This document shows positions 5,141-55,911 of a stretch of DNA of 64,000 nt, piece after piece. The stretch lies in contig OZ287068.1 of NCBI GenBank assembly GCA_965645245.1, forward strand, positions 2,046,001 through 2,110,000, written 5' to 3'. The stretch comes from Massalongia carnosa. Lineage: Eukaryota. The notes under the pieces are model-generated. The model was not told the origin of the DNA and did no database searches. It saw nothing but the letters and a program-made list of their open reading frames with translations. The stretch's first letter is position 1; every line of letters starts with the position of its first letter. Position numbers and translations under genes: made by a program.

Positions 5141-5459
5141 TGGGAGGGGTGAAAACATCACATCGTCGCCTCGAAGTTTTTTTTTTTCCCTTCGTCCAAC
5201 GCCTATCGCAAATTCGTGTACAGGAAATCGAGCGAGGCCCTACAACATTCGACATCTTCTCCTCATCAGAGATCCCCTGTTCGTCACTACACCACTGCCG
5301 ACAACACCTCGCGAGAACGAACCCAAGGATACACCGAGGATCGTCAACTGAGAGCTCGCCTCAGCGCAACGAAAACATAGACAGCCCCAATCCACAACCC
5401 TACCATCCTCACGCTCGTGTCATCCACTACCAATCAACGAGTCAAGCGACCGAAAATTA

Positions 5460-11769: not shown

Positions 11770-11821
11770 AATGAACACACGAGGGCAACGAGGACGTCGC
11801 CATATAAAGGGGGGAGGCAAT

Positions 11822-12062
11822 TGTCAGGGTCTCGACACGGGGACGAGGATCCTCGCCTCGATCGGGGACAGAACGTCTAGACCCTGACAACGCGTCATCG
11901 GAGTTATCAGGATAGGAATTTCTTAGGAGTAGGACATCAGAGAGGGGTATATATTAGTCGTTTCGGTTCTTATAGATAGCTAGTTGTCAGTTTATCCATT
12001 CTATCCTCGCATGCCATAGCCCTATAGGGCTCCCTCCCATCGCCTGTCACAATAACCTTACA
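11822..12062 (+). repeat. 3' LTR of element 1 (241 bp)
   Basis: TGTCAGGG...AACCTTACA, preceded by the PPT and followed by TSD CTTGA. Confidence 0.95.
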
Positions 12063-24578: not shown

Positions 24579-24833
24579 TGTGACGAGGCGGCAACGGGGG
24601 GGCCTATTCAGGTGGTGAAGGTGGTGGCATTGCTAGCTATGACTATACTAGATAGACAAGACGAACACAAGGAAGAAAGCATCAATTGCTGCAGAGATTT
24701 TCCATGTAACTCCCGGAACCCATTTCCTTACCTGAATGCGGTTAGCTCCCCACTAAGGCTAACGCGATACCTAAAACATTTAGCGTGTCGGGAGGTATCG
24801 CTTAGCAGAGCATCTCGCGCTCACACCATGACA
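24579..24833 (-). repeat. 3' LTR of element 2
   Basis: TG...CA termini; identical to 30176-30430. Confidence 0.96.
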
Positions 24834-24889
24834 GTAGCTCCCCCTTCAAGGCCTGCTTCCACGCAGGCTTTATAGCTTCAGGGTGTGAG

Positions 24890-30111: not shown

Positions 30112-30175
30112 ACTAAAGAGGTGAATGAGAAACGAGGAACGGAGCACCACCTGAACACGGGTGAGGTGTTCGTAA

Positions 30176-30430
30176 TGTGACGAGGCGGCAACGGGGGGGC
30201 CTATTCAGGTGGTGAAGGTGGTGGCATTGCTAGCTATGACTATACTAGATAGACAAGACGAACACAAGGAAGAAAGCATCAATTGCTGCAGAGATTTTCC
30301 ATGTAACTCCCGGAACCCATTTCCTTACCTGAATGCGGTTAGCTCCCCACTAAGGCTAACGCGATACCTAAAACATTTAGCGTGTCGGGAGGTATCGCTT
30401 AGCAGAGCATCTCGCGCTCACACCATGACA
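30176..30430 (-). repeat. 5' LTR of element 2
   Basis: Identical to 24579-24833 and upstream of gag on the minus strand. Confidence 0.96.
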
Positions 30431-33782: not shown

Positions 33783-36239
33783 TGCGATGCCAGGCAACTC
33801 CTCAGCTGAACTAAAAAGACCACAGCACTCCTTTTGATCGTGTTCACAATCTTACATTGCATGTAAGATATATGGCCTGTGTAGCGTCAGATGTCGTCAT
33901 CATTTACCAACGCGTATGTCAGCTCCTCCCACCTGAATCTTCTCGCTCTCTCCACTCTATCCGTCTCGAACTCGGGGTTTCAAAGAATATTAACTCATGG
34001 GATGCTTCGGCTTGATTTTGTTCTCACCAAGCTTGGTAGGCAAGACTAATGATAAGACAGATACGGAACCGTGAGGCGTTCATGGTCTGTTGAGAACCTA
34101 CGCTCAACTCTTAAACCTACAAATCGATGTTGGATTGCGTCGGCTAGAACACGATTCATCACAATCAAAATACTTTGCCACAATGGCCAGAATTTTCTGT
34201 ATTTGGAGATCAGTTTACTCAACATATTTGTTCTTCTTAACTCATTTGTTTTATGATGTTAAGACAAGTTAACGTTTCCCCCATTCTGTTTAACCGAGCT
34301 CGCCGTAATTTGATAGACATCGTTGTCTCAGATAGCGATGCTGACCCCTCTTCGATGTTGGCATTTCTCAACTTGCTTAGAAATTGACGGGGTTCATCTT
34401 CCAGAGTTGCCTCACTATTCTGCTAAAACACCTGTTAATGCAACTGTCTTTCATTGCTCTTGCATTCCTTACATTCCTTAAATCTTGTATTTCATCTGTG
34501 GTTGTGAATAGCAACGCTTCTCTAAAAAAGGTTGTATCTTTTTCTATTTTCAGCTTCGAGAGTTGATTAAAGTAAAAACACGAATAATAACAATCTGCTT
34601 CCTTAATTGACCACCCCGCTTTACTTGGACTTGTGATGTCTTTCTCACAATACATAGTAACTTTGGCGGGCAATCAAGAACTGCAACGTTTCATTTTCGG
34701 CCTTTCGCCTTGCGACGGAGTGATTCCATCAAAGCCATGTTTTCATGTCAAAGATTTTCGGCATAAAAGTCTGATGAGTTCTTGTCGATCCTTCAGCGTG
34801 CGACATTATCACAACCTGGCAAAATGAGACAGCACGGTGACGACATATTTGCTACTCGGAGCAGTCGAAGATTTATTTTCACTTCACTGTGTTGAGGATC
34901 AAGATAAATACTCTGAAGCATGCCTTGAAATGTTGTACTTGGTTCAATTTCACAAAACGTCTATTTCCAATCACTTTGTCATATCAAGCACTGTTCGGTA
35001 TCCCTTTTAGGACGTCCCCCACCTGTTTACTTAAATTCGTCTCTTGCTCGCTGCGATTTTTTTGGCAAAGCTTGCAGCCGCTTCTCCTACAATAAAGCCA
35101 AGCATGAATGAAACACTCTACAAGAGAGTACCTCCGATTTCATTTGCGTGCGATGATTTCCCCGGTATGTTTTGCTTCCTAGAGCTGTGACATGGTCAAG
35201 CTAACATTGAGTTTCAGAAATTTGCACTAACATGTGCTGGGGTATGTTGATTCGACCTTTAAGTTTCTCGAATGTAGCTGGTTCTAACGGGGAACAGGTG
35301 CAAACTGTACCGAGCCTATCTTTGACGCGAAACTCTACTAATGACAAACATATCGACTCCAAGAAATTGAATCAATGAACGGGCGCAGGTTGCCAGCCAA
35401 GGTTAACCCGCTGCCCTGTGAAGCACAACTCGCCTTATTCATTCGCCGGCTTTAACTGCAACGATGACTTGCCTCACATGAGCGAAAACATTGCACATAA
35501 CACTATTAGTGAGCCAGAATATTCATTCGCTAGATATTCATTCGCTAGCACCAATGACGCCGATAAGGTGGGTAAGTCAACCGCTGCGTGCCAAAAACTC
35601 AAAATTCGGATATGCGCCGACTTCTTTACCATCAAGGTGTGCAGTTGTCGCTAACATACTCGCTTTCCGCATTCAGCCCAAGGAACCATTGTTAGAAATT
35701 ACATCAGTACCAGCTGCGGCTGCCAGTAATGCTCGTTCATCGTCAGCTTTGGCGGCCCCGCTTCCCCGGCGTCAAATACTGCGGAGCAAACACCGACCAA
35801 CACAACCTTTGCGTCCCCGACATCACCTTCAAGGGCCAGAAATCTGACGTCCAGCCTCCTGCCGCTGCGAAACGCAGCGTGAGTATAAAGCCCCGCGGTG
35901 GACTCTACAAGACGAAACGGGGCATGGAGGTCTTGTTTTCTGACGACCTGAAACCAGGAACGACCAGCAAGCATGCTCGGGCCCGAAGGACAACTCCGAT
36001 CATGGAGAAGCGGGCTGGAGGAACAACATCAATTAATGAGAAACGGCCCAACTGCGACACCGGAGATCATGATGAGTGGGACACTTGTCCCATCGCCCGG
36101 CTGATCAGGAGTGGCGAGGATGCCCGATTATGAGATCATTGATAACGCTATCGCGTACAATTTGAGTTAAACAGGGTTTGCCTTCGTAGACGCATTGGAG
36201 ACTGACTAAGAAAAATTGTTGTATCATTATCAATTTTTT

Positions 36240-39200
36240 ACATCTGTTACCGACCAGGAGAACAGGACCTAGTCATGATGAGGGCCCCAAGGGCGCCGGA
36301 AAAATGAGAGATTGATTGTCGATAATCCTCCTGCACCGATTCCAGCAGATCTCCCACACCAGCTTTTTCACCAACTGGAATCCAGCAAATAAGCATGTCC
36401 AGAAGCGCTCCAATAGCGTCATCTACGCCGGAGATTGGCACATGACGCCCAGAATCGAGATAGCCAAAACACACCGATTCCTTGCCTACCCATCTCCGTA
36501 GGAAGATTGCCTAGAAAGATTTCATAATAGTTGGGACCGTAATACCATGCTTCTGAGAAAAGACACGGAGATCGGCTGTAGGCCTACTCCCAAAAACCAC
36601 CGTGTTAAGCTGGCCACGTCCTTTAGCCTGGTCTGAAGCAACTGAGAAGAGACAAGGTTGAACATTCTTCAGATATTTCAGCCAATACTGCGTTTCCGAG
36701 CCATCACAGCTAAGCAAATGTTTGACATAGCGGCTATACCGGGAGCCTCTCCTGGCGGAATTTGACCTGAGTACAAGAGAGACCATTCCTCCAACAAGAT
36801 AGACCTTGAGATCGCATCCATGATAGAGTGGCTCATGTCAAGTCTGAAAATGACGTCTCCAGTCGCCATTTGGTGGATAGTCAGCTAGTGCGGCAGGCTT
36901 TTGTCTAGACTATCCAGTGGTGGCTGCATAGTAAGATTTTGGAGGGCGTCATCATTGGAGCATTCAACATCAACAATCATAGCGTGGACATCCTTGATCA
37001 CAACCTGATTCCACTCCGACTCGGATTTTCCTGGCACGAAAATAGTCCGGAGAGAAGTGTGGCGGTCTATTATTTTCTGCCACACGTCTTCGAGTCCATC
37101 TAAGCTGATCGGGGGCGCACCCTCATCTCAATTGATACGGCCAGTCAGCGACGTCGCATAAAGACTTCTCTCGTTCTTATGACACTCCAAAATCATTCGT
37201 TGCATGAGCGTGTAAGGATAAGCATCCTCGAGCTGATTTGACGATAGGCCAATAGATAGTAGCCTTTTGTTCGGAAAGTCATCAAGCTTCTCGTAGGATA
37301 GACATAAGAGCGGAAATGCAGAGAGCGTATGGCTTGGTAAAAGGCGAGGCAGCTCGTTTGCTGCCCCTTCAAGACAGTTCTTACAATATACCACCCATTT
37401 TTTGATAGAGTAAATGTGGTTCATGTGACGGTTGTACCAGAATGTAAACCGAAGACGACCTTCTGCAGCAGATGCCGTGGCCTCGATGAGTGCCATGCGC
37501 TTGAGATCACGTATAGTCTCTGACGGACTATCATTGTCTAGTCTGATAATCTGAAAAGTGCGCCATCATGTTCCAGTTGTTGATATAAACGCTCGTAGTT
37601 GAACAATATCTCGACGGGTTCGGGAATTTTGAAGACCTTCCCGCCCTCAGGGTTGTGGTATCGCGAAGCAAAATAGACCCATCCGTTTCTGGGCACTTTC
37701 CGCGATAGTCTTTAGTACGGCGAAGAGGCTCGGCAAAGGTTTGCCCTTTGTAAAACCTAATATTGTCGGCCACATAGTTGTAAACCATCCGACGGTCCTA
37801 GAAATGTCGATAGCCTCATCCCAAATTCCCGCCCATGCCCCCCGTTGAAGATGAGTGGTGCAGATTGATCCTGAAATATCTCTTCAAAGGAATACCATAG
37901 CGCTGCTTGAAAAACTTCCACAGGTTGAGTCCCGAAGGCATTACCCGTAGGCCCATACAAGAGGGACGTAGAATGTTCGTCCAGTATGAATTTAAGCTGT
38001 TGTATGTCCCCATATGTATTTTGGGATACTCCAGGTCCCCAGTAGTCATGCGGTAGGGGAGTGATCTGAACGTGTAAAGCCTTCTCAGGAGGCAGACTCT
38101 CAGCAGCGAACTGTGCCTGTAGACGGCACCAAGTTTGAAAAGATAGAGGACCAGTGTTGAATAATGATGCTCCGGTTAAATGCTTCTCGGAATCCTCAAG
38201 TAGAATCCGCTAGGACACTAAATCAATGACAGGATGATGAGCCACCAAGAATATATTGCCCATCATCACGTGTAACAATCAACTTTAGTGCAAGAAAGGG
38301 CCCGTTTTCAATGTCTAACAGTGCAGGTTTATCTTGAAGGACATGAATACTTTCCTGTAGTGTGGTAGTCTCAGTCTTCTAATAGCAGTAGCAATTATCT
38401 ACGGTCATCATGATCAGTTGGCTCCACTCCCATCCGTTCCTTGTGTGAATCGAGCACGTAGCATAGAATGTCTCGCTACGATAGATTTCATAGCAAAGAT
38501 AACGTCAATGGATTTGACTGGCCCGGTGATGCGTAGAAGAAACTCCTGAACAAACTGATTATATCCGCTCGTTCGATATTCGAAGAACAACTGCTGCATG
38601 GGTGGGAGTTCAAATGGAAAATTCACATGCTCCTCATTTTTTATGGAGGGATTCACAATTCTCGTGGCGCAGGAGCCCAGGCTTGCAATAATCCTTCTCT
38701 CAAATATCCGAGAGACAGTGATTTTAAGCTCTTTTGATCGACAATTTGCAGAGAGTTGCATTGCTGAGATGGAGTCACCACATATCTTGAAGAAGTTGTC
38801 GTCCACACCGATTCTCCCTGGGTCGACGTTCAACACTCAAGCCCAGAGATGCTGCAGCGCCTGTTCCACCCTCGGTGACAGTTGTCGCTTCTGTTTTGAG
38901 ATTAGGAGTGGGGCATAAAATAGTCACGGGGCAACCGTTCAGCTTGCTCTCGGAGTGATCGCCGATCCACCTTGCCAGCTATTGATCGTGGGATATAGCG
39001 TAGAGGGATGAAGATAGCAGGCACCATAAAGCTTGGTAGAATCTCAACCACCCGAGCCTCTGCAGAAATAGCCAGAGAGCGGAAGCTCTCAGAGAGGGGT
39101 TCCAAGATCTCAAGAAGGTTATTATTTTAATCGTGATGATGATATACTTTGGCGGACTCATCGCATAACACAAAAGCTACAAGCATCGTTTCCACCACCT

Positions 39201-42200
39201 CAACTACGACATCGCATGATCCTGGAAAGGCCTGGCGCACGTTCTGCTCAATCTCTTCAAGTTCTAGACGGTGTCCTCGAATCTTGACCTGTGTATCTTT
39301 GCGTCCGATGAACAGGAGTGTTCCATCTGGGTTATAGCGTACGAGATCCCCCGGTCCGGTACAGCTTGCCTCGCCTTCCCGGTTAGGTTCCAGATACTTC
39401 CCGAAGGAGCCAGGGCGGATTATCGATAAAGGAGACCTTCGTCTTCTCGGGCTCTCCTAAATATCCTTGTGCTACTAATGGACCTTCCAGCCAGAGTTTG
39501 CCAATGGCCCCGATAGCCGCCAGCCGATCGCCCGAGAGCTCGACCACCCATGTTACTAAGCCAATGCCACGCCCTATGTTGCCGACAGAGTCTATGTCGT
39601 TTTCATGAATATCAAATCCAGTGGCCGTCACGCTGCACTCTGCTGGTCCGTAAGTGTTTTTCAACCGGGTCCGGAAACTCCACATCTCGATGTCACGAAG
39701 AGATATGGATTCACCCGCCAGTATGAGTGCAAAGGCTCGATATGCTTGCTAGATCAAGGATCCGAGCCGTAGATGGTGTCAGGTCGGCGTAAGTCACAAC
39801 CATCCTAGCTATAAATTCTCCAATGTCGTCTTTGCGGGCCGGCTCAGAAGGGATGCACAGACAGCCACCGGATGAGACGCAATGCAGAAAATTTGACCAA
39901 GCGGCATCAAAGGAATATGACGCGAAATCGAGGACTCGCTCATTGCAATTGAACCCAAGAGTCTCCTGTTGATATTCAATGGCACTGCTGAGCTTTGAGT
40001 GAGAAATGATAATCCCTTTTGGTGTGCCGGTACTGCCTGAAGTGAAAACGACATACAACTTGCTATATGGATCGACCACAGGCAAGGGGCGAAAAATGTA
40101 TGTGCTCAACTGGTTAAGATGAAACTCATCGACGATTAAGACCGCTTTTATACCAAGGAGAGCTGCTATCTCCTGACATGTGACCGAGCACAGTATGATG
40201 TTGGGTTGGACTTGCTGAACAATCTATTGCAAACATTCCTTCGGTTGTGTTACGTCCATGGCTACTGACGCACCGCCTGCCTTCATTACCACCAGCATTA
40301 CGACTGGCATCCACATTGACTTCTCAAAGCAGCACGACACAATCACATCCTAACCAACTCCCTACTCAACAAGATGATATGCCAGCCGCGTTGACAGTTC
40401 ATCTAGCTCGCTATATGTCAGATCTCCATTCCATGCACAGACTGCAGGTGCATCTGGCTGCACATGAGCTTGCTCTGCAACGAGATTGTGTGTCTGCAGT
40501 TGAAACTATCGCATTCCATGTCCAAATTTCATGCATGTCCGCTTCAGTAGCAGCCACAAGATTCTGGACCTGCATCTGCCCGTTGTCCTCTGCACAGATC
40601 TGGTACAGTATATGGTCTAGCTGCCACATCATCCTCCATACCTGTCTCTGTTGAATTACCTGGGAGTCAAAGCTCAATTGTAGCCTGACACCACTAGATT
40701 CAAGCTGGCATTCCACGATAATGACATAAGGATTGAAGGAGTTAAGTTTAGCTGCATCCTTATTGTTATCCTCATTTGTTCCTGTCTGAAACAGCTCACC
40801 TTCATAGTGTGCTGTATCTATTAATGATATTGGTTGCACCACTAGTAGTTTCTGAAAGTGACTGCCTTGATCTATCTCCTGGCTGATCCTTCGGATCTGC
40901 TGCAAGCCCATCTGCTCAAATGGAATCATTTCAACTGCCTGTACTTGAATCTACTACAGAAAGCTATGAACACTCTTTTCCCAATTGGTACATATCCGTA
41001 CTGGTATTGTGGCAATGGTTGGCCCTGTCATGAGCTCAATTCCAGGGAGTGAGGCATTTCGGCCTGTCACTGTTGCACCAAACACCACATCTGATGAATG
41101 TGTGTAATGTGCTGCCAGAAAGCAGAAAGGTCCATGCAGCCCGCACCACGGCTGATGCAGTGATACCATTGTGGGGCCACTGGAGCGCAGAGATCTGGTG
41201 TTGCACAGTGTGGTCAGCCTGGGGTTGGTATCTCGCTGATGGCAAGGCTGGAAACAGTACTGCTTCTGAACCTTGCAACTGATCCTGCCAATACTGTCCT
41301 GCATCATTGTTGGACTGCATGATGTGTTTGAAAAAGCCCTGGAAGGGAGGCAGGGTATCTGCTTTCTTGCCCCAATAGACTTCCCCAACCTGTTTCAGAA
41401 TAAGCGGTGTGGACCACCCATCAAAAACCGTATAGTGCCTTGTCCACACAAAAAAATCGCTTGCCATATGTTTCCTCCTCTACCAGAGCAAACCGGGTGA
41501 GAGGTGTCCCCAGACCCATAGTCTTCCATTCATCCTGTTTCAAGTAGGTGTGAAGGTCTTGGTCAGTCATCCACTCGGGTTTTTCATCTATGACAACTTG
41601 CACCAACCCATGTTCAGGCAGATCAAAGATCGTGTCCTTAGAATAGGTGTTATAAGAATAACCTTTGCCCACGCTTTCTGAAAACGGTGTATATCCACAT
41701 GATCTTGTAGTTCCAGCACTCTCTGACTCACATAGTCGCCTGAGCGCTTCGCCGTCATCGCCAGCAAGCTTTCTTGAAGAGGTTTGCATGGAAATACGTC
41801 TTCTACATAAGGAGAAGCAAGCCCGCAGAGTGTAGCGACTGTTATCCGAGTGTTGCCTTCGTTGATATTAGGTATGAGAAGTGTAATAGGAGCAATAGTC
41901 TCTTGACTATAATCTTTTACTGTCATGACACGCGCGAGCTCACACAACCTTGGTGTGCAGATAAATCTGCCGCAGGCAATGACAGTCCTTGATTACGTGC
42001 CTCCCTAACCATCCGCAATACCCCAATTGAGTCACCTCCTATCCTCAGGAAGGTGTCATCTGCACCGATGCCACTGACTTCGGTGCCAAGGACTGATGCC
42101 CACAATATCTGTAGCCGCCGTTCCATCTCTGTCACTAGCACCCAAATTGTACGCCTGTACGGCTGCAGCTCCATCAACTGCTCTAGTGTCAGCAACTCAC

Positions 42201-44900
42201 CCATCTCATGCAGTTGCCGTCGATCCGTCTTGCCCGTCGCCGTCATCGGGACCCGGTCAATTTGGATAAATGTCCTGAGCACCATGTACGCTGGTAAGCT
42301 TTCCGCTAAAATTTTCTCTAGTCCAAGCACAAGCTGCCCGGGAGTTACAGTGGCCTCCTCTGCAGATCCAGCTGCCTCCTTACCGAACGCAAGGAAGGCT
42401 ACAAGCATAGAATTGCTGCTGCCGCTGGGCGTGATAACCTCTGCAACTACCAGAATGCCGCTGCCAAGGCTTTGTCGTACGTGGTGTTCGACCTCGCCAA
42501 GCTCCACGCGTTGCCCACTGATCTTGAGCTGGGTGTCTTTGCGCCCAATAAACGTAAGTGAGCCATCTCCATTGTATTGAACAAGGTCCCAGTGCGATAA
42601 AGTCCGCAGGCTTGCTTTTTAAAATGATTGAGCCAAGGGGGAGCAGGAATGAAAGCAATCGCCGTTCTTTTTAGGTCATTAAGATATTAAGATATTCTCG
42701 GGCCAGGGCTGGTCCCTCTATCAATAGTTCACCGATTACCCCTATCGCTGCCAGCTGTGATGGATCGTTTGGCCTGAATATCCAGCCAACGCCATTCACC
42801 ACTAGACCAACATTGCTGGATCTCCGCTGAGTGGGTCGGCCACGCTCAACAGCACAGCAGAAGGCTAGTTCTGTGGGGCCAAAGGCATTGAATAAGGTCA
42901 AATGGCGCAACCATTTGTTGATATCAGACTGAGACATTGCCTCTCCTATCGAAACAAGTTTCTTCAATATTGGCAAGTCACTAGGAGATGGTTCGGCTGC
43001 TGTAGATGGCGTAAGAATCGCCCATGTAATGTGCTGCCTCTGAATGAAGTCTACGAGGTCGGTTCGCTCGAATTCAGATGGGATGCAAAGACATCCCCCG
43101 GTCAGAAATGCATTCAAAATCTTATGCATGCTTGCATCAAATGCATACGATGCGAAATGGAGCACTTGTAAGCCTGGATGGACATTCATGTTAGGATTAA
43201 GGTTCCGTATGCCCGTAGTGGTATTCTGATGCTCCATGACAACGCCTTTCGGTTTACCGGTACTCCCAGAGGTATAAAAAACAAATGCAATAACTGATGG
43301 AAGTATGTTGGGTAGTTTACTGTCCAGCTGGGATTGGAGTCTATCTACCAGGGATTGGGATACCACAACAGTTTACCTTACGCCTGGCAGGCGTGTTTGA
43401 TTGGCTGGGGAAACTATAGTTATCGGAGCTCTGGTGTCTTGTATAATCGCTTGAGCTCGCCCCTTGGGCTGTGACGGTTCGATTGGGACGCAAACACCCC
43501 CTGCCCTCAAAACAGCCAGCATGGTCAGGCTCATCCACTTCGATTTTTCAAGGCACAAGAGGACCATTGTTGAGATCCTAATGCCATTTTGAATAAGGTA
43601 ATGAGAAATCATGGATGAAATAGCAGCCAGTTCCTTATATGAATTGCACCTCCTCTCTGTCAAGGATCGCTGCATCAAGACTGAACGCGATAACTAATCG
43701 CTTGTTATCGACCGCAGGAGTGCAGGTTATATCCAGAGCGCATGTTTCCAATACCCCATTCAGCTCTCTGAGGCGATTGCTGAACAGGCCTTGGCCGAGC
43801 AGTTGTTCAGTAGCGTGATTAATTGTTAAGTGAGACATGTATCCACATGCTCTGAACGCCTCGTAACCAATCTTGCTGATTTCCATTAGTCCTAGGTACT
43901 CATGCGCAATTCTTGCCACTGATTGAGCAGTTATGGCATCCAAAGCTGCCTTGACTGTTTGATTTTGTTTAAGTTAAATTCGCAGCGGAACAGCTGCAGT
44001 TATTGGACCGGTTGTATGCTCCATGTGGATGATATTTTGGGCAGGCATACTGAATCCATATAGAACGTCCTCGGAGTTTGTATAATGGCATATGAAAATA
44101 CCCCGAGCCAGCTGAATAATTACTGGTAACGTGAAGCCGAATCCTTGCCAGCACGGTACATTCATTTTGTGGTCGTGTGAACCGCGCGATGATGGTAAAT
44201 CTTGCTTCGGAAGATGAATGATGGGAAACGTGGCTGCATTTAGCCCACAAAATTGGCACTTCCAAAACATCTGAGATGCAGCACGCTCCAGAGATGTTTT
44301 ATATGCAATGAATTGGCTGAATAGCCGTGGCTGCCGTCTCTCTCCCTTATATGGTGCCTTAGCCTGTGCTAGCAACGATGATAAACAGATGGTCAAATAA
44401 GGCATGGTGGATTGCCAGAGCGAAAACGTGAGAGCATGACTCTTCTTCGGGCTGGATCATTGCAACCCGTACCAAAGGAGAGCCTTGCCCCATCGCTTCA
44501 GCCAAATTCGCCCTCAGGTACGTGTCCAGCTTATTATATGAGAGAAATTCGGGTCCTCTTTTCACAACAGCTTGAAAAGCGCCCAAGTCATTCTGAATCA
44601 GTCTCGTTCGGAGAATGCTGTTTGCCTCCACAATGGAATTCCAAGCGGCTTGAAATGGATACAAATTGATGTCAGGAGGAAGTCTGTTGACAAATCGGCC
44701 CACGCGGGCATTCGGCTGTGTCTTCATGGTTGACAAACTCCACGCCTGCCTGGCGGTACATGGATACATATCCTCCACGTTCTTCTTTAGGAGCCCGCAT
44801 TAGTGCCTCGAGGTGTTCAAAGATAGGCTTGGTATCTTTTGTCTTCAGATCGTGAAAAAAAAGATACGCTTTGGCGTGTAGCATCCTGCTGCCTTAACAT
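36240..44900 (-). pseudogene. Non-ribosomal peptide synthetase pseudogene, architecture C-A-T-C-A-T-E-C
   Basis: Many short ORFs in shifting frames. C1 EDMYPCT..RTRL..HHALFD (~44780-43650); A1 YTSGSTGKPKG, FGPTE, GRKDTQLK, TGKTDR; T1 GGDSI (~42030); C2 EDVFPC, HYTVFDGWS; A2 [33 protein letters not shown]2 GDSIS (~38770); E HHPVID, GHGRE, SRTVGWFTT; terminal C EDAYP, SHSIMD. Many frameshifts and stops. Confidence 0.93.
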
Positions 44901-45844
44901 TATAATCATGCGTCTGGCAATTGCCTTTTTGCAGGTGAGACTTGAGTCTTTGGAGTTGCTCCTGACATAGGCTTGGAATGGGCAAAAGTTAAAACATAGA
45001 TTCGAAAGTCGTAAGTTGGCCAAGCACCCATACAGTATTCGCATTCATAGGTCTACTACTCCGTAGTACCCTCCAGGCGCCATGCAAAGCGCCTTTTGTT
45101 CATCCCTGAATGAGTACGGAGAAGTACGAAGAGGTGAGGAGCTGAGCCAATTCGAGAGCTGGTAGCTTTAATTTTTTTTTTCTGGTGAGCGGCCGCTAGC
45201 TACACTGGTGATGCCTCGCAACCAACCTGGGGGAATATGCGGAGAACTATAGGTATCCATAGATGTTATTTTCTTGACTTCCTCCTATCGCATAGAACCC
45301 GCGATAGCTATGAGGTGAACAGGTTAGTAAGGGGAGGGTGCGAACACCCTACATCTAATGACGCCCGATTAGGATTAACTTGCATTGTTAAAAGTTTAAG
45401 GAAACAAGATTACTAGATACAATATCGTATTGCTGTTTAAGCTTTTACGGATAACGCTTTGCATTCTGAGTGATATTAATGCATATGCATTGCATTGCAT
45501 TAACGCAAAGCAAGACTTCGCAGGTTTCTTCTTAACTTCATCATGTTTTCGACATGCACTTCCGCAGTCACACTGCTAAACACGGCACATTCAGAAGATA
45601 AGCTCTTCATTTTTCGATTTAACTTTATAGGTCATTAAGATAATATGCACGCTCTCTATACTCCAAAATTACTTAAACACGGTTAATCGCTCAAGTATTG
45701 TAAGACCCCCCACATCAAACGTTAGGAAGGAAGACTGAACACTTGTAATATCTCTATTATAAGCGTCTTAAAATTGATCGTACCGTTAGAATTCTTAACA
45801 ATCTTTCCAGCCAAGCTGCTGAACGGAAACTAAAGAAAGCAACT

Positions 45845-48144
45845 ATGACACTGTCAAAGACCGAGGCACCAGCTGCATTCACTGCCGCGTTTAGGGTCTG
45901 GCAGCGGATGCAACAACTGCTGGAAGGTGGTGAACTCGTTGTGGATGGCAAAAGTCTAGATATCGGAGCCGTTGCTGCGGTGGCATAGTAAGGACCTTTT
46001 GGGCCTGAAGTTCTTAATAAAGATAGTAGCTGAGACAATTTGTTTCAATAATAGCCATGGCTGTCTACCGAAGCTCTCGACGGATGCTATTCTCCTTGAA
46101 AACCTGGAAGCGAGCGTAAGAGTGCTGATGGAGCAGCTGGATAAAGGCTACTATATTTACGGTTCATACACCAGTATTCGTATCTGAGGGCATTCTAGAG
46201 AAGGTGGTTTATCCATACAGCGCAACAGCCCACTGATTATAAATTTTATTACTAGGAGTCAATACCGGCTTCGGAGGCAGTGCGGATGCTCGCACCAATC
46301 GAGTTGTTGCGCTCCAAGCCGGGCTCCTCCAACATACCCAGGCGGGAGTGTTGGTAACAGCGGACACAACCGACAGTCACCATCAGGCCGGCCGGGTTGA
46401 GCGCAACTTCCTAGAATCTCATGCTATGCCAGCCCCATGGGTGCGAGCAGCGATTGCTGTTCGCTGCAATTCAACCGTGCGCGGGCATTCGGCCGTATCC
46501 CCTGAGATCATACAATCGCTCCTCAAGCTATTGGAGCACCGAATCACCCCCGTTGTCCCATTACGAGGCTCTATCTCTGCATCAGGGGACTTAATGCCTC
46601 TCTCATATATCGCCGGAGCCATTGAAGGAAGTCCTGATGTTTACGTGCAGGTTGGAGATTCTACGCCAGACGGTCCGGCTCGAATCATGACCGCTCGTGA
46701 TGCTCTTCTCTTCGTGGGTCTGGACCCCCGAAGTATGCAGCCTAAAGAGGGCTTGTGTATAGTCAATGGCACTTCATCTTCGGCGGCGTTGGCCAGCCTG
46801 GTGATGTATGAGTCCCATATGTTGGCAGTACTAGTGCAGGCATTGTCAGGGATGGCTGTGGAGGCTCTGATGGGGAACTCAGAGAGCTTCCACCCGTTTA
46901 TCAGCGCTATCCGCCCTCACAATGGTCAAATCGAATGCGCTCGTAATGTCCTTTATCTTTTACAAGGATCCCGTCTGGCACAAGGAATCAGCAATGCAAA
47001 GGATCGCAACCGGTCTGGATTGATTCAAGATCGCTATGCACTGCGCAGCGTACCGCAGTGGATCGGGCCCCAACTGGAGGATCTCCTCTCTGCTCATCAC
47101 CAGGTCACAACAGAGCTCAATTCATCTTGTGATAACCCACTTGTGGATGTAAATTCAAATGACATCTATTATGGCTGCAACTTTCAGGCTGCCTCCATCA
47201 CCTCAGCAATGGAGAAGACCCGCACCTCTCTACAGATGCTGGGAAGGTTAGTTTTTGCCCAGGCGACGGAAATGATTGAACCCCATCTTAGTAATGGCCT
47301 GCCTACAAATCTTGTTGCTGACGATCCCAACCTGTCCTTTACTATGAAAGGGGTAGACACAAATATGGCGGCTTACATGGCCGAGCTGGCTTATTTATCC
47401 CATCCTGTCAGTGCTCACATTCAATCCGCTGAGATGCATAACCAGTCCGTCAACTCAATGGCCCTTGCCTCCAGCCGTTTCAGCATGCAGGCTGTGGAAG
47501 TCCTGTCCATAATGTGTGCCTGTCACCTTTACGCAGGCTGTCAGGCATTAGACCTCCGTGCATTGCATTTAACATTCATTGACCATGCATCAGATGCTTT
47601 GCATGCCTTGACTGCACGAGTCTTTCCGTGCTTGTCAGAAATGGAGCTATCCCAGCTTAATCTAGCATTGAAAGCGCACGTCATTGAAACATGGCCAAAA
47701 ACAAGCACCCTTGCAAGTGAGGATCGGTGCCACGTGACTGCGAAGACCGCTTTGGATGTGCTTGTGGACGTTTTTTCTTCAGATGAACGCACTGCTGGGC
47801 CAAGCGTTGCTGATCTCGGCCGCTGGAAATTGCAGGCTATCAGTACGCTTAGAGGGTTGTACAACACCACAGCAGAGCAGTTCATCCAGAATCCCTGCAC
47901 CGTAGAGTTGCTTGGTACAGGCTCCAAGGTGTTATATAAAACTGTTCGGCAAGCGCTAGGCGTGCCATTTCATCTAGGGTTCATTGAGCACCCAACCGCC
48001 GAAAGTGATACATTACACGGTCGGAGCAAGAAGACCATTGGCTCCTGGATCTCCGTCATTTATGAAGCTATTCGTACTGGTCAGGTTATTAGCCCTTTGA
48101 TGGAAGTTTTGCAAACCAATGCATTTGATTCGGTAGAAACATAA
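45845..48144 (+). CDS. PAL: MIO-dependent aromatic amino-acid ammonia-lyase/aminomutase (PAL family), intact, 3 exons (45845-45987, 46055-46161, 46256-48144)
   Basis: Spliced frame is continuous: VDGKSL, YGVNTGFGGSAD, RGHSAV, GSISASGDLMPLSYIAG (ASG forms MIO), KEGL..VNGT, QDRYALR, DNPL, GCNFQ and AEMHNQSVNS. Confidence 0.95.
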
Positions 48145-48539
48145 CCGCCATTTAATCTTCGGATTACGATTACTTTGAGCTCGTAACGGCAGATCTACAG
48201 AAGAATAAATTTCTCATTTCCTGTCTTTTGTCTCCCTGCCTCTCACTATGATTCGTTCTCTCTCTGCTCGCTCTTTTGGGTTTCTTTGGGCTTGGAAAGG
48301 CATTTTTACACGTGAAATAGGAACTGTATCGTCCTCGAAGTTCTGAAAAGCATGGGAGATAAAAATTTCCCGCCACTTAGATGTCTAGATTAAAGATGCA
48401 CAACGCTCGATTTTGAGAGCTAGCCTAAGCTATTCTATCACCGAAAGATATTCAAAACTATTCAGAGTTATCTTGCGTTTCCTGACCGAAATATTTTAGC
48501 TCTAGTAAATAGGTACGCGAGGCAATTATAGGTCAGGTA

Positions 48540-50100
48540 GCATTTAGGCTGGGATTGGCTCTGCATTGTGAATCAGCATATCAGTCATTCTCTTGTGGGA
48601 TTCCAAACGCTAGATATCATCGCATCGAAAGCGTTGTACCTCCGAGAATTGCTAGAACCTGTGGAGCACATCTTCCATCCACGTGTTCGGAAACCCAGGG
48701 GGTCCGACATCAAAATGCTCCCGGGCAGGGAGATGGCCTGTTTACCTTCAGCTCCTCCAGATTTTGTGCTGGTCGAGTGTACCTTCCTCATCTGTCAGAT
48801 GATCATTGGTAATATTCTTCAGCCGGGGTGTGCTCTCCGCGCCTTTGTAGCTCCATCCTCTCTAAAGGTAGCGGCTGAGCACATTCACCACCCTTGATTT
48901 CAAAGTCGGATCCAACTCAAAGAGCATTTGATTTAATGGTGTTGAAAAATATGAAAGTTTGTATGATGATCAGGCAGGGGGTTTTTTTTTCTACTTGACA
49001 GGCCAGAGTGCGTACATACCCATTCCTCTGCCTTCTCCATTACGTCTATTGGAACCATATGGTTGATCAGCCTGACAAACCCACAATGGCGGAAGGATTC
49101 CACTAGGGAAGCTGCAGCTATCTATTTCTGATCCTCGATTCCTTTCAGGAATAATGAAAAGTCCAGAGTAATAGGGGCTCATTGCGATGCAAAGATGTAG
49201 TTTGGGGAGTATATCAGGGTTAATTGATTGATAGATGCCAATAATGTCCTATGAGAGAAGTATCCTACGTTTAGGAGCGCTCTCTAACCCCGGATCACGG
49301 TAGGGGGGTAGCAGGCTTGATTGCGGTAGCCTTTCTGTCCAATTCGCCCCCAAATCGAGCTTGACGTATCCCTTGTGCTTGCTTCGGATTAGTTACAGGC
49401 GCACTGTACTTGCTCCAAACGCAGTTTGAGCCCGAAGCTAGTCCAGGGCGATATTCGTAACTGGTCTCCTGCAGAACCGGTTCCATCATAGTACACGTAG
49501 CTTACCAAATCCAACAAGTTTCCTTAAGATAGATGCATATACATCAAAGACTTGATTAATGAACAGGGAATCATTGTGAGTATTTCCAAAGCATCGAGTT
49601 TCCTAGGCATGATCTTCTGGCTTAAGCCATCATTTCTGTACAGGGCGCACACCTTTACAGAGATTTTTAGCCACGCCATAATGTTCTGGCGCAGGGAATT
49701 CTGCAGACCCAGAGATGAGGTCTGTACCCACAAAATGGCAGCTATTAATCAGCAGATCGTGATTGGACGTGTTTATGTAGGCCGTGAGATAACGACGGGG
49801 TTGTGAAGTGAGTGGGTTGAACTGGGAGAACTTAGTCCGTGGCAATAGAAACAAGAAGGGCACGCTTACGGAAGATATCTATGAGGAACATCTTGTGCGG
49901 TATGCAAGGTTTTACAAGATCTGTATTGCCTATGAAGAGATCTCAGTTATTTTCTAGGCATCTTGAGGAGCCTTTCAAAAGGGAGCTAGGTGGACAAAAG
50001 CCTGTTGAGGGATGTCTCATCGATAAGTACCTGTTGAATATCAACAAATCCATATGAAATGGTGCAGAAGAGCCACCAGCAATCAACGCTTTATCTATTT
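48540..50100 (-). pseudogene. Unidentified degenerate coding remnant inside the cluster
   Basis: Protein-like stretches separated by stops and frameshifts (e.g. HFDVGPPGFPNTWMEDVLHRF; SLFINQVFDVYASILRKLVGF) and GT..AG intron-like segments. No family recognised. Confidence 0.3.
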
Positions 50101-51049
50101 TGTTGATTAGATATGTGGCTAGGCTATGAGAATAGGTTTATTAATCGCAACCAGATACTCCGTCAGCATGCAGTAAAACTTCCTGCAGTAATGTCTAGTA
50201 ACCGAGTACAGTAGAACGGAACTTTTTCAATATTGCGGGGTCGAAACTTAACCATCATCATTGACATTGAACTTATCGCATTCGATGCGGTATGTCAAGC
50301 CAGCTGGATCATATCTGACGTAATATGCGAATGCCTTCGCGTATTTACTGATATGGGAATAGCTACATCTGAGAATTTCTGGTATCTTCGATGCTTAGAA
50401 ATTCAGGTCTATAGACATTCGAGGAGAACCTCGAATGTTCTGTGATCAATATGTATATAGCATCACTCCTACGCATAGCATAGAGATTAGTCGCAATAAT
50501 CTGAATTATTTCATTCATAGAAGTTCTGTACTATCAAGAGACTTCTGGCACTCTGCCACCTATTTTCTGTGCATTGGGTCCATCATTCTCCATCCATCCC
50601 TCCTTTTTTAAACACGGTATGTACACTGGATCTGAAGCCTAATCGGATGTGCTATGATTTCAACAAACCGCATTACCAGGAATAGAATTATGATAGTGAC
50701 GAAACGTTTTGGACCACAATTTCTAGAATGGTTTCTAGATTGGTTTATATGCTTTCCAAGAACGAGCAGCTGTTGACCCTGAATTCATCCCTTGTATATT
50801 TCAAATTGTGGTCTACCTATTCTGAAGAATTTCGAGAATGTAATCTATCCTTAGTACTCCTTCCGCCTTAATCGTCGCCGCTGGTCCATCAATATTAATG
50901 ATGATTATTTTTCGGTTCTAGTCCCTGTACCATGTTGCCGTTAGAAACCAGATGCCGCCACTTCCAGAACGTCTCCAGCTCGTTTTGATATTCGTCAGCA
51001 TCAAGTATCGGTTACCGAGCCTTTCAATGAACAGAACATATTTACATTT

Positions 51050-52017
51050 AGGCATCATACCTCTTAACTCGAGTCGAGTATAGCATCGCCATGAGTGTAA
51101 TTGGGTGGAGGATACTCGTCAGACCGAATGGCAGCCCGAGCCAATCATCCCCAAAAACCATTCCCCAATGAAATACCATGGCCTAGGCAGGACCCGAAAC
51201 TAAAATGCCAAGTCCATGAGCAACATTAGTTGATGTGTATAAGGCGCCAATCGAGGAAGGAAAAACTAGCGATGTCATCGCGCTGCGCTGCGCAAGGTTA
51301 CAATGAAGGATGAACCCAGCGCAATGGTTATGATACCAAAAATCAAACCGGCGGATACTTGGATATACCAAGGATCAAGTGCCCAACAAGCAGAAGCACG
51401 CAACTTTCTTATGATAATCTAAGGTTCTTCCGGCCAGCCTCGAGGTTAAATCTTCGAGAAACATATGCGTCAGCAAGAGGCATCAACAGGATGACAAGAA
51501 GCAGGCGAAAAAGGCTTTAAAAATAATCACGAGGCTTTTCTAACACGATTCGAGCTCGTCAATTTCTCAGGAAAAAAGTTCATTGTCGAACAGATAACTT
51601 GCCATAATGTAGTCCCACTCGAATCTGTCGAAGTGTACTGTAGCAACAGTTGTAAATACTGTGCACCGAAGCAAGCAACGAAGCAAGTAATAAAGAATAT
51701 AAATAGAAGTAGTAGAATGACTAGGCTCGTCCAGACAAGTTGGATGAGTTGATAAGTTTTGAATTATCCCGAGCGATGGCTCCGTTTTTGGTTGACCACG
51801 TTCAGGACTCACTTATTCTTCGCCACCAAAAGACTTATGGCGACAGGATGTGTTTCTAGAAGACTTATGGAGACCAGGCCACCTACTAGAGTGAGAATAG
51901 ATGATAGGGCTAGAGGATACCATGGGTGGCACAAGAGCATGTATGATGTCCACGTGTCATGCATGTTTCGTTTTCAATCGTCAGAATCTTGTTAGACAAG
52001 CGCATTTGCCTCTTCAA
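51050..52017 (-). pseudogene. MFS transporter pseudogene, 3' portion (5' end displaced to ~53420-53623, +)
   Basis: HPWYPLALSSILTLVGGLVSISLLET, hydrophobic helices, and TSLVFPSSIGALYT...GILVSGP...FHWG...WLGLPF, typical of the C-terminus of fungal cluster-associated MFS pumps. Contains stops and frameshifts. Confidence 0.7.
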
Positions 52018-52417
52018 CTTGTCAAGAGCCGGCAACGGCTGTCTGAGTTCTGTCTGTGCACGCCGTGGCTCAAGACTACCACATGATCGCGGCCGGGAAG
52101 ATTGTGCAGAAGTAGACTCTCTACCTCAGGATAGTAGATTCAGAATCGAACATCTCATAGGTCATTGATAATGAGATATTCTGCAGAGTTTGAAAGCGTT
52201 CTTGTCCAGACTGTATTGGCTGATCTTATGGCTGAGGATATCCATCACCAGACTCGCTAGGTGTCTTTGTCACTGATATATTCTACTTCTGCATGACAAA
52301 CGGAGTTGAACCGTCCTCCGACTGGTCAATAAACATTAGGTCTGCGTCAACCGCCCCTCGAGGAGAATAGTTAACATCAACCTTGGAGTTGAATGGTGGT
52401 ACGGCCGACGTTGACAT
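52018..52417 (-). pseudogene. AsaB/CmcJ-family (hydroxylase/desaturase-like) gene, N-terminal half
   Basis: PRGAVDADLMF, VMDI....QYSLDKNAF and IYYPEVESLLLHNLPG.DHVVVLSHGVHR, matching the family pattern DIRG...FSLD.NGF / YYPEVE.LL...G...V..FDH..R. Confidence 0.72.
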
Positions 52418-53623
52418 GATTCCCAGCCTCGGAAGAAAGATTGAGATTCGTGAACAAGCTGCAGCAGTGGCGGAGTTTGCTGCCTTTTGTTAGGAAATGC
52501 ATTAGGCTCTACGAAACTTAAGCCGAGAACCTTGTTAAACCCGACCGTTCTCAGAATGCCGTTTCTAGGACATTTCGCGAGACTTTGAGATGGAAGATGC
52601 ATGCATGACACGGCGCTCTATTGGCGCGTTTTTGTAGATATGGGTTGTTTAGAGTACTTGCTAGCGAAGCTGCCGGTGCTTGTACGTTTACGATGTGTTA
52701 TCATCCTGATCGACAATCATTCAGCCAGCCACAAAGATTGAAATACCTCAATACAGGCGAGAAAGCGTACGCATTCATCAAATCATTAGTATGCGACGTA
52801 ATAATATTTTTGATGTGAATGTTTACACGTTCTCGTTGAATGTCATTGTGCGAAAAGAATAGCCATGTTCGTGATCTTTTCTTCTCTTTCATTTTTTATC
52901 TTATTTTCCCCACCAGTTGAACAGCTAGGTAAGTTGAGCAAGCCCGAGAACTTACAATGACAGACTGCTGGGTCTCCTTGCCCGACTCTCGATCATTTAA
53001 TCGACGAGCGCTTCTACGTGCTCTAGATGCTTATCGGCAAGTTATTCATTGATATAGTTCGGCTCAAAGCAACAGCTGATACAAGACGATGTACTGTACG
53101 CACAGGCAGTATGCGCAGAAGGCCAGAAGCACTTACACGGAGCCGCGTCGCCTGCAATTCCAGGAACTTCCAGATGCAAAAAGAAATCTTTTAATGGATC
53201 TAACAGGAATCGAACCTGTTAAAATATTAAATGAGTTTGGCTCGCTAATGTGACCTTCTCCACTATTCGTATAGAAATGAAACGCACAAATGGGTTCTTC
53301 ATCTAACATCAAGTGTCGGATGATGACGCTGCGTGATTGTTTGTACTGTTCCGAATCCAATCGCTCGCAGACACCTAAAAACAGACCTAAAAAATAGCGC
53401 ACACAATATATGGGATATGACGCGTCATGAGGATGCAGTCACTCCAAGCCGAAGCGTTCCTTCCCGTCGACGCTAACGATGTCTCTTTCGTAAGGCTGTG
53501 TATGTACTCCGTATTCGTCGTCCAAAATTCTGTATAGTACTGGTATAACTAGTACCTCGTTATGTAATTATAAGCCTTCTCCGTAGGTTCTGTTTCCTAT
53601 GCCACCGCCAGCCTATCTTCTTT

Positions 53624-54075
53624 GTCCATTCGAAAAAAACCACACAGGCTGCTGAGGAGTTTACCAGACAGTACGCCGAGTCCGAGAAGGCCGCTGAGCT
53701 CCTTCAAACCCACCATCGCATCACTGTTCTGGAAACCTCTTAGCGGACGTGGTGCAGTCAAAGCCTATGGCGTTCGCATTTGCTTCGTCCCTGGATGACG
53801 ACGATATGTTTCTCGTGGAGATTCGGTCTTCCGGCCGCTTGCAATGGTATACTAGACTCAAGTATAATCCCCAGTAGCAGTGGATGTATTGGTCGGGGAT
53901 GCAGAACGATGAACGTCCACTCCTCAAGTGCACCGACACAGCAGCAGGTGTGGGAAAGAAGGCGCCCCATTCGGCTTTTCTTAATTCAAGAACATTGTTA
54001 AAAGTAAAGCCTCGTGAAAGCATTGATGTTAGAGCTATAGTATTCGGTCGAAAGAACCGGCTGCTCTCATTCTGA
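53624..54075 (+). pseudogene. AsaB/CmcJ-family gene, C-terminal half
   Basis: VH...T, FWKPL, PMAFA, YNPQ*QWMYWSGMQNDE..LLKC.D, APHSAF and PRESIDVRAIVF, matching the family pattern NVWRPL / YNP.HRWYY...M.PDE.LL.K..DS / PH.AF / PRESIEVR.LVF. Confidence 0.78.
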
Positions 54076-54822
54076 TGCCGGAACGTTTTTGTGCAGACTA
54101 CAACGCAACAAGAAGCCACGCTAAAATGGAAAAAAGAGACCTTTCAAGACGACAGGTTTCTTCCCTACTTATTTTATCAAACGAGAGACCTAAGATTGAA
54201 AAGAGATACTTAGTCGATAATATAAATAACGTGATAATTGCTTGCAAGAAACCTCTGTGTGCATTATCTACTACTGCATCACCCTGTATAATCAGATGAG
54301 AGTGGCTAATTAATAACTGATGATGTGCACACGGGAGAGGGAACGGCCGAGGGCAGACTGGAGTTATGGGGGTAATAGAAGAGGTTGGTTGCATGACTGG
54401 CTTTTGGCCACTCCCCATTTGATATTAAAAGTTCAGCACCAAAAAGAAACGACTTTCCCTGACTAACTCACCCATTTCGATAAACAGTCACATAGATTGA
54501 TGGGCTTTTCTTTTGGGCACCACCGTTGCGATAACGGGAGCCGCTCCTGTTTATCTACAAGGCGTCAGAAAGGCAAGCCGGCGGGGGGGAATGGATCAGC
54601 CATAGATGGTAATGGTAGGTGTTTTAAGCTACGTATCTCAACTTATACATCTTTACGCAACAAGCGGATCTATTTCAGCGGCTGAGGCGTGCGACGTTAT
54701 AAACTTCCCATCGCTTCCCATCGCTTCGCTGAACCACCGCTTCGGGTGGTTCTTTGACCGTAAGAAATGGCTACAAGCCAGCTGGGACTCTTCTTTATGT
54801 ATCTATGTCATTGCCATCAAGC

Positions 54823-55911
54823 TTAATCCAGCCTTTTAATCATCTGCTCAACAAGATCTTTCGCCAGCGGACCCGATTGCTCCAGCAGCGAGCCAAACTT
54901 GGTATTTTTTACCAGCTTCTCAACTACGCATGCCACGTAGTGGATGACGAGGAGTCTCATCTCGTCGATCGATTCCGAAAGATCTGCAGTCTGGGAGTAG
55001 CTGTAGCGGATCAACTCAACAACATCATCTGTCCGCTCGTCGTGCAGGGTAGACTCGGCTAACGCCTTGTGGAGCTTGTGAAGCGAGAGAGATTTTAGAG
55101 GGGCGATGCCATATTCATCTGCAAACGCGTAAAGTTTGGCATGGCAGAGGAAAAATTCGTTGTAGTTTTCGCTTGGGTCGCAGGCTTTTCGAGAATCAGG
55201 AGTAGGCTGAGAGATGGGGTATGCTCTATTTTTGAAACTGTCCCATAACTTTGACTTCTTCGACTGCGCAGGGATAGAGGCTGGCTTCACAGATTCAAGT
55301 AAGTCATAATGAAATGGCCTTATCTCTTCAAATAACCTTTCTTTTTCAAATGACCTTTCTTCTTCATATAACTCTAGTTTCTCAGGTGCCATTTTTGAAG
55401 GTATCTTCTTTTTCCCTTTCTTATCCTTCGTTGACCCCGAGAATGATCTCGAGCCGTCAAAGTCATTAGGACTCGGGTCGGGCTTGGAGTCGATAGAGTC
55501 AGTAACAGGAGTTTCCTCCTTTCTAACATCACCCTTGGCCAGCTTAGGAAGAGCCTCACTTAGAGTAGAGTGCGTCGCCGCGGTCGCAGAGTCCGGTGCA
55601 GGTTTTGGCTCCGCAGCAATATAGTCCCCTGTGTATGCGTATTGACTGAACCGAACAAAAGTACGCTCGTCAGTTTCTTCTAGCGAAGCACAACCCTCCT
55701 TTTCTTCTGATAGGGCTTCGTTCCCAAGGGCACCAAGGGGTTCCGAGTGGTGAGCTATTAGTGCGGAATGGACGGTGAAAGGTTTTTTTTATCGGGCCCA
55801 ACAAGGAACCTAAAGGAAGGAGAGGAAATAATACTGCATGGTCAATCTACTTAGCCATTCTTGCAGTGTGGTGAGGAAAGAGCGATATCACCTCTCATAA
55901 GAGATCGTCAT
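54823..55911 (-). CDS. BTB/POZ-domain protein; apparent frameshift in an A8 run at 55783-55790
   Basis: MTISYE/SIISSPSFRFLVGPDKK-PFTVHSALIAHHSEPL...LEETDERTFVRFSQYAYTGDY and FLCHAKLYAFADEYGIAPLKSLSLHKL, the fungal BTB pattern. The frame needs 9 (or 6) A's in the homopolymer. Confidence 0.82.

Follow-up and report, generated by a model that had tools for sequence, protein, structure and literature searches.

Pathways in which a phenylalanine ammonia-lyase (PAL) feeds an NRPS (non-ribosomal peptide synthetase) are rare in fungi, and the few that have been characterised gave unusual scaffolds. In clusters of the hancockiamide/helvamide type, an NRPS-type enzyme receives a phenylpropanoid acid from the PAL, and LenA, the NRPS of the lentopeptin cluster of Aspergillus lentulus, is said to load cinnamate by its initial adenylation (A) domain. 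According to a review (PMC11101550), the PAL LenB feeds cinnamate to this NRPS, which joins cinnamic acid with Ala and Val; its terminal condensation domain, C(T), forms an N-acyl diketopiperazine by cyclising the N-acyl dipeptide; the product is thus an N-cinnamoyl dipeptide cyclised by C(T), and it is then oxidised. Hancockiamide/helvamide-type clusters, as described in PMC12006828, contain single-module NRPSs and an NmrA-like reductase, and fungal N-cinnamoyl tripeptides, the talaropeptins and asterripeptides, are described in PMC10608792. Here we describe a locus in a 64,000-nucleotide stretch of the Massalongia carnosa assembly GCA_965645245.1 (contig OZ287068.1, positions 2,046,001 to 2,110,000; the whole stretch is called the window), where a shattered NRPS gene and an intact PAL-family gene lie back to back. 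We interpret this locus, with a probability of about 0.8, as what remains of an NRPS biosynthetic gene cluster with an associated PAL, of the fungal peptide-antibiotic type. It represents, in dead form, an uncharacterised variant of the known PAL-plus-NRPS cluster type: the NRPS gene and the genes for a major facilitator superfamily (MFS) exporter and a CmcJ/AsaB-like oxygenase are all pseudogenes, and the PAL-family gene is the sole cluster gene still intact.

The lentopeptin cluster (lenA NRPS, lenB PAL, lenC cytochrome P450) resembles the window in that a PAL stands beside a multimodular NRPS with a C(T)-type end. The two differ in that the window NRPS starts with a condensation (C) domain, keeps the amino-binding Asp in its A domains and contains an epimerisation (E) domain. 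Compared by description, they also differ in their oxygenases, which are a P450 in lentopeptin and CmcJ-like and 2-oxoglutarate (2OG)-type remnants in the window. Pfam scans that covered the open reading frames (ORFs) of the window and the read-through translation of 48,151-54,152 gave no P450. The locus does not belong to the lentopeptin type, which combines an A-domain start with a PAL and a P450. The cyclochlorotine cluster of Talaromyces islandicus (NRPS CctN, aminomutase CctP) likewise pairs an NRPS with an enzyme carrying the 4-methylideneimidazole-5-one (MIO) group; CctP, however, is 54% identical to the window PAL and falls in the other major branch of the PAL tree. There is no resemblance to the single-module NRPS and NmrA-like gene set of the hancockiamide/helvamide phenylpropanoid piperazine type.

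The NRPS pseudogene and its decayed neighbours

Between 36.2 and 44.9 kb the stop-to-stop ORFs of the minus strand are all short (60-233 codons). Pfam recognises Condensation, AMP-binding or PP-binding in 16 of the 23 pieces scanned (36,250-44,799), which line up as C-A-T-C-A-T-C-C (T, thiolation domain). These ordered C, A and T domains, collinear with NRPSs of 4,086-4,145 residues, identify a multimodular fungal NRPS (Table 1). For its reconstruction we wrote a frameshift-aware protein-to-DNA aligner, in which gap costs are linear and introns are not modelled, and guided it with the closest intact relatives. In the comparison with P0001, a protein of 1000 residues that covers C-A, 615 of 912 aligned codons are identical from 44,894 to 42,151, with 6 frameshifts, 3 stops and a gap in the C1-A1 linker near 43,640, where roughly 45 codons have been deleted. 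Against the 4145-residue NRPS of Periconia macrospinosa (P0132), 278 of 511 codons are identical in C2 and 847 of 1633 in A2-T2-E-C. When the three alignments are merged, the tract of about 8.6 kb carries 21 frameshifts and 16 in-frame stops, a few of which events could be small introns.

Table 1. Positions in the window of the NRPS, the PAL gene and the remnants that accompany them (limits of the NRPS domains are approximate)
Feature	Coordinates	Strand	Remarks
NRPS pseudogene, C1-A1-T1-C2-A2-T2-E-C(T-like)	36,283-44,909	-	Pfam pieces; collinear alignments to P0001, P0132 and P0141
NRPS, C1	approx. 43,640-44,800	-	
NRPS, A1	42,230-43,690	-	
NRPS, T1	41,953-42,117	-	
NRPS, C2	40,500-41,950	-	
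NRPS, A2	approx. 39,130-40,490	-	
NRPS, T2	38,678-38,833	-	
NRPS, E	37,540-38,610	-	
NRPS, terminal C	36,283-37,127	-	
Divergent intergenic region, NRPS start to PAL start	44,910-45,844		about 935 bp; no Pfam-bearing ORF
PAL-family (MIO, Lyase_aromatic) gene, intact	45,845-48,144	+	PF00221, E 1.9e-135; 712 codons
PAL exons	45,845-45,987; 46,055-46,161; 46,256-48,144	+	introns of 67 and 94 nt, GT..AG ends
2OG-Fe(II) oxygenase, probable N-terminal remnant, weak	48,936-49,121	-	DIOX_N below cut-off
High-copy insertion inside the decayed tract	50,288-50,614		327 bp; X4 contig skips from 50,287 to 50,615
MFS transporter pseudogene, C-terminal two thirds	51,051-52,035	-	6 relatives among 1.84 billion representatives
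CmcJ/NvfI (AsaB-like) oxidoreductase remnant	53,740-54,045	+	C-terminal 40% of profile; NCBIfam NF041278

Some catalytic motifs have survived and others have not. C1 keeps HHxxxD, while the second His of C2 has changed to Tyr (HY for HH); T1 has GGDS, and T2 has CGDS in place of the GGDS of the relative. Of the C-type domains, the third, which Pfam itself labels only Condensation, was assigned as an E domain from its core motifs rather than by a tool: HHxxxDxxS, GHGRE (EGHGRE-like), RTVGWFT and FNY are all visible in the aligned translation of 38,300-37,550, and also in P0132. The terminal C(T) domains of fungi that cyclise their products usually carry SHxxxD, a motif found in the terminal C domain of the window as in P0132 and P0141. 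Homology ends at residue 4044 of 4145 of P0132, so the 3' end is lost; over roughly its final 100 codons the terminal C domain gave no credible alignment to P0132. With its frame broken and its motifs damaged, the gene is a pseudogene that encodes no functional enzyme. The preliminary description of the locus, made from the sequence alone, had recognised a shattered C-A-T-C-A-T-E-C NRPS, and frameshift-aware reconstruction, the Pfam order and the E motifs bear this out.

In the segment 36,005-36,238, which abuts the truncated 3' end, the depth is about 1.8 times that of the adjoining sequence, and contigs are interrupted. The end of the NRPS gene may have been cut off by a repeat at this position.

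Frameshift-rich genes are common in uncorrected long-read assemblies, and one might suspect that the NRPS is really intact and its shattering an artefact of an error-prone assembly. We consider the chance of this practically negligible. Contigs from the runs X1 and X3, which are two samples of one organism (X1 may be the source data of the window), show 0 differences and 0 gaps over 36,235-50,322 and 50,575-55,500, and the pieces from X5 are identical to the window. A contig of 23,044 nt from X4, a dataset labelled as lichen metagenome from a separate study, spans 36,975-51,332 and comes from a relative that is about 98% alike, differing at 1.3-2.1% of bases: 109 other letters and 26 gap letters in the 6.7 kb of NRPS tract, and 59 other letters in the 4.7 kb of 45,627-50,287. 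With so few gap letters, most of the frameshifts must be common to both. Stop codons, moreover, account for 16 of the 37 disruptions, and nearby ORFs of 1276 and 1335 codons are open, as is the PAL gene. Assembly or sequencing error is thus ruled out by the X1, X3 and X4 contigs. At precisely the position of the C1-A1 linker gap the X4 relative retains 76 further letters. Its pseudogene is in essence the same one, and the NRPS therefore died before the two lineages split.

Contigs of all four runs also align to the window at 43,245-43,278 only, a stretch of 34 nt that encodes an A1 core motif, and then diverge. These are other NRPS genes sharing a conserved motif and not variants of the locus.

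Repeat-induced point mutation (RIP) was considered as the cause of decay and ruled out: the RIP indices of the NRPS tract are negative (TpA/ApT 0.63; (CpA+TpG)/(ApC+GpT) 1.48), and indels make up more than half of the lesions. The mode of decay is therefore ordinary neutral erosion by indels and substitutions.

The same state of decay is seen on the far side of the PAL gene, where, as the preliminary description had it, remnants of an MFS gene and an AsaB/CmcJ-family gene follow. A read-through translation of 50,921-51,973 (minus strand) gave 6 matches among 1.84 billion representatives, 4 of which carry MFS_1. Along residues 155-430 of the Periconia homologue P0383 the remnant is identical at 138 of 270 positions (51%), with 6 frameshifts and 5 stops. 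The remnant itself has no direct Pfam or NCBIfam match, and its homologues P0382 and P0383 match MFS_1 at 2.7e-18 and 6.5e-17. The CmcJ/NvfI remnant matches profile positions 158-262 of 263 of NF041278 at E 3.6e-21, with 75.9 bits against a cut-off of 80, and has one in-frame stop (53,875-53,877); to judge from this match it is a clear relative of the family, but a fragment. A third gene, for a 2OG oxygenase beside the PAL, is possibly also dead: its DIOX_N match (E 4e-5, 24.7 bits against a cut-off of 27.3) recurs in the read-through frames, and its only two PDB matches are both 2OG dioxygenases, if weak ones (E 0.42 and 0.89). NCBIfam gave no MFS and no 2OG family among the downstream remnants, and a six-frame Pfam scan of 48,151-54,152 with stops read as X returned only the weak DIOX_N match and no MFS, P450, CoA ligase, methyltransferase or transcription factor.

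Within this tract lies the 327-bp insertion, whose word depth in the runs of the X1/X3 organism is 60-130 times that of its flanks, and which is absent from the relative in X4. The 8 bases CGGTATGT stand directly before it and occur again as its last 2 bases and the next 6. Rfam gave no match for the insert, a very high-copy short element that may be of the kind of a miniature inverted-repeat transposable element.

Persistence of the PAL gene and relatives of the cluster

The PAL gene contrasts sharply with its decayed neighbours. An open frame of 633 codons (46,243-48,141, plus strand) matches Lyase_aromatic, and two short upstream exons complete the gene, giving a spliced coding sequence of 2139 nt with a single, terminal stop. 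When it is aligned with residues 1-709 of the 712-residue Periconia PAL (P0243), 523 of 703 aligned residues are identical, and alignment events fall only at the two GT..AG introns, with no disruption elsewhere. The Lyase_aromatic domain is full-length, and the Ala-Ser-Gly (ASG) triad of the MIO enzymes is present in a GSISASGDL stretch of the translation; what we take to be the selectivity position reads H-T. The PAL product of the X4 relative (P0242) differs from that of the window at 8 of 594 aligned residues. An intact MIO enzyme across a divergent region of about 1 kb had been claimed before, and both the gene and the spacing agree with that claim.

If the PAL were as damaged as the NRPS, which has 37 disruptions over 8.6 kb, its 2.14-kb coding sequence should carry about 9, while 0 are seen (Poisson P ~1e-4). 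Selection has preserved the PAL since the NRPS died. The gene clearly outlived the cluster, a survival that the preliminary description overlooked, and it probably has a role of its own; a gene that survives in this way is not merely a part of the cluster. The locus is thereby a clean example of piecemeal cluster death, in which four genes, counting the possible 2OG oxygenase, decayed and a module was lost while one biosynthetic gene remained constrained, and it bears on the recycling of cluster genes.

In a tree of 46 rows the window PAL belongs to a clade of 12 rows (SH-aLRT 100) together with the PALs of Periconia, Monosporascus and Conoideocrella and further sequences. The members of this clade are scattered over distant fungal classes, a patchy pattern typical of genes of secondary metabolism.

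Among named proteins, those nearest to the PAL, to the MFS and to the NRPS all belong to the same two genomes, those of Periconia macrospinosa and Monosporascus sp. MG133. For the PAL, the best named match is PVH96196.1 of Periconia (75%) and the second best RYP33158 of Monosporascus (71%). The top two matches of the MFS remnant among the 1.84 billion representatives are RYP37115.1 (DL767_003069) of Monosporascus and PVH96198.1 of Periconia, which are neighbours of the NRPS homologues RYP37116.1 (DL767_003070) and PVH96199.1. These two NRPSs are each 66% identical to the window in the A1 piece, and besides P0001 they are the only proteins more than 52% identical to that piece among the matches listed. 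The Periconia accessions for PAL, MFS and NRPS fall within a run of four and are recorded on a contig of 94,734 bp, while the MFS and NRPS genes of Monosporascus have consecutive locus tags on one contig of 231,810 bp. Co-occurrence of these genes in other genomes, on which the preliminary description had staked its reading, is thus found for PAL, MFS and NRPS in Periconia and in part, for MFS and NRPS, in Monosporascus.

The NRPSs of these two fungi are 52-56% identical to that of the window over the aligned codons (64-66% in the best A-domain pieces) and share with it an N-terminal C domain, an E domain and a terminal C domain with SHxxxD. They differ in having three modules instead of two and in being encoded, like their neighbours, by intact genes where the window has dead copies; PAL and NRPS are adjacent and divergent in the window, whereas in Periconia two genes lie between them. 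Going by these database records, the root endophyte Periconia macrospinosa appears to possess an intact, uncharacterised version of the cluster. A search of the literature available to us found no paper that names the Periconia or Monosporascus accessions or describes the cluster, in keeping with the earlier remark that this gene combination was not recognised as a described cluster. The relic itself cannot be expressed, yet it points to a conserved, apparently unstudied set of PAL, MFS and NRPS genes, in which the NRPS begins with a starter C domain, includes an E domain and closes with a C(T)-like one. The main value of the locus lies in this pointer to the intact genes of Periconia macrospinosa and Monosporascus sp. 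MG133, which could be expressed.

A metagenome scan gave a single locus with a PAL (L001, 1-11,169). Its PAL (60%), which groups with that of Penicillium griseofulvum, stands beside an NRPS-like gene starting with A-T, an NmrA-like gene, two genes for short-chain dehydrogenases/reductases and an MBOAT gene, and the gene content looks like that of a phenylpropanoid piperazine cluster of the hancockiamide/helvamide type. On account of this different context L001 was rejected as an orthologous cluster.

Module number and the predicted pathway

Both full-length relatives, P0132 and P0141, have the three-module order C-A-T-C-A-T-C-A-T-E-C, one module more than the window. In bins of 200 nt, T1 and the N-terminal half of C2 of the window are closer to the module-2 C domain of the relatives (identity 0.54-0.67, as against 0.33-0.54), while from about 40,900 on most bins are closer to the C and A domains of module 3, most clearly at 40,100-39,700 (0.63-0.68, as against 0.41-0.56). 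A C2 domain of such chimeric origin fits the loss of one unit made up of a C half, A, T and a C half, and suggests that the window NRPS lost one module. It may instead be that the extra module of the relatives was inserted in the other lineages; the three-module form is the likelier ancestral one because it is found in two different fungal classes, and the two-module state is probably derived. The preliminary description had taken a two-module NRPS making a dipeptide to be ancestral, and in this respect it needs revision.

The N-terminal position of C1, on which the same description had relied, has held up. The homologous proteins P0001, P0132 and P0141 start 0-44 residues before the corresponding C domain, which has HHxxxD; all three relatives begin with this domain, and C1 is therefore truly N-terminal. 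In the window, furthermore, the PAL gene starts about 935 bp upstream of the NRPS start. As to what the A domains load, the Asp of the FDxS motif binds the amino group of the substrate, and this Asp is kept in A1, in A2 and in all three A domains of P0132. It can be argued from this that the A domains load amino acids and that cinnamate is therefore not loaded by an A domain.

From this architecture we infer an N-cinnamoyl peptide chemistry. In the living pathway the PAL would have made trans-cinnamate from L-Phe, and the starter domain C1, which its HHxxxD marks as catalytically competent, would have condensed an activated cinnamoyl donor onto the amino acid loaded by A1, so achieving N-acylation. 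The chain would then have been extended by one residue, or ancestrally by two, and the last residue epimerised by the E domain. The C(T)-like terminal domain with SHxxxD would have released the product, probably via cyclisation, after which the oxygenases may have tailored it and the MFS protein exported it. In the lineage of the window, one module would have been lost and then the whole pathway, with the PAL kept for another use.

Several points weigh against this reading of the locus as a cinnamate-fed cluster. The Pfam scans of the window ORFs and of the 48,151-54,152 read-through showed no acyl-activating enzyme (CoA ligase or free-standing A-T), and the substrates of the A domains were judged only by the Asp of FDxS. 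The adjacency of the genes in Periconia is read from accession numbering and equal contig size and not from DNA; it is carried by PVH96196, PVH96198 and PVH96199, with PVH96197 standing between PAL and MFS. In Monosporascus the contig of the NRPS and MFS genes is not the one that holds the PAL homologue. An intact PAL with a dead partner is also consistent with a PAL independent of the NRPS from the start, and by sequence PAL and aminomutase activity are not separable here.

These points lead to two other interpretations. According to one of them, the PAL is only a neighbour, a catabolic or independent phenylalanine ammonia-lyase, and the NRPS never used cinnamate, its C1 domain taking another acyl group or serving in release. 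Such a PAL could well remain intact while NRPS, MFS and CmcJ-like genes died, need not be linked to the NRPS and MFS genes in Monosporascus and would have no use for a cinnamate-activating enzyme nearby; the nearest sister groups of its clade, moreover, are the PALs of nearly every Aspergillus, which are 58-66% identical and housekeeping-like. On the other hand, mere proximity does not readily account for PAL, NRPS and MFS all having their closest relatives in the same two genomes, for the Periconia homologues falling within four consecutive accessions on one contig, for the divergent promoter region shared by PAL and NRPS in the window, or for the patchy distribution of the well-supported PAL clade. 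We think an independent PAL unlikely and favour one that belonged to the cluster.

According to the other interpretation, the MIO enzyme is a phenylalanine aminomutase that gave beta-phenylalanine to an A domain, as proposed for cyclochlorotine. The two kinds of enzyme share the fold and the ASG triad, the Asp retained in A1, in A2 and in P0132 throughout its three A domains would allow alpha- or beta-amino acids as substrates, and relatives at 58-59% identity are named aminomutases. The latter names, given to Lachnellula proteins, are automatic transfers, however, and the window PAL is separated from CctP by sequence and by its position in the tree, as described above. An aminomutase would also leave the HHxxxD starter C domain with no obvious acyl donor. 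We therefore regard this interpretation as quite improbable, and prefer a PAL that supplied cinnamate.

If the PAL did so, the predictions can be taken a step further, if with more doubt than confidence. Clusters of the Periconia/Monosporascus type might produce a new class of fungal N-cinnamoyl tripeptides in which the starter C domain, and not an A domain as in lentopeptin, sets the cinnamoyl unit; release together with oxidation by a CmcJ-like alpha-hydroxylase might turn these into ergopeptine-like cyclols, and in the lichen-associated lineage of the window the PAL might have been retained and re-used once the peptide pathway was dead.

Other features of the window

The rest of the 64-kb window is ordinary ascomycete DNA, with two Ty3-type retrotransposons, a hAT remnant and genes of housekeeping type. 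Both Ty3/gypsy-type elements (4,930-11,951 and 24,579-30,430) are full-length long terminal repeat (LTR) retrotransposons with open gag and pol frames, the long pol frames being those of 1276 and 1335 codons. One LTR pair is 99% and the other 100% identical, so that these insertions are recent and the elements possibly active. The hAT-family transposase remnant (23,754-24,872) consists of the dimerisation domain only and directly adjoins the LTR of the second retrotransposon. An Aa_trans amino-acid transporter gene (17,035-18,163) is split across two overlapping frames, the cause being an intron or else a frameshift. The CmcJ-like remnant is closely followed by an intact ORF of 321 codons (54,826-55,788, minus strand), which has no Pfam match and by eye is like a fungal BTB/POZ protein.

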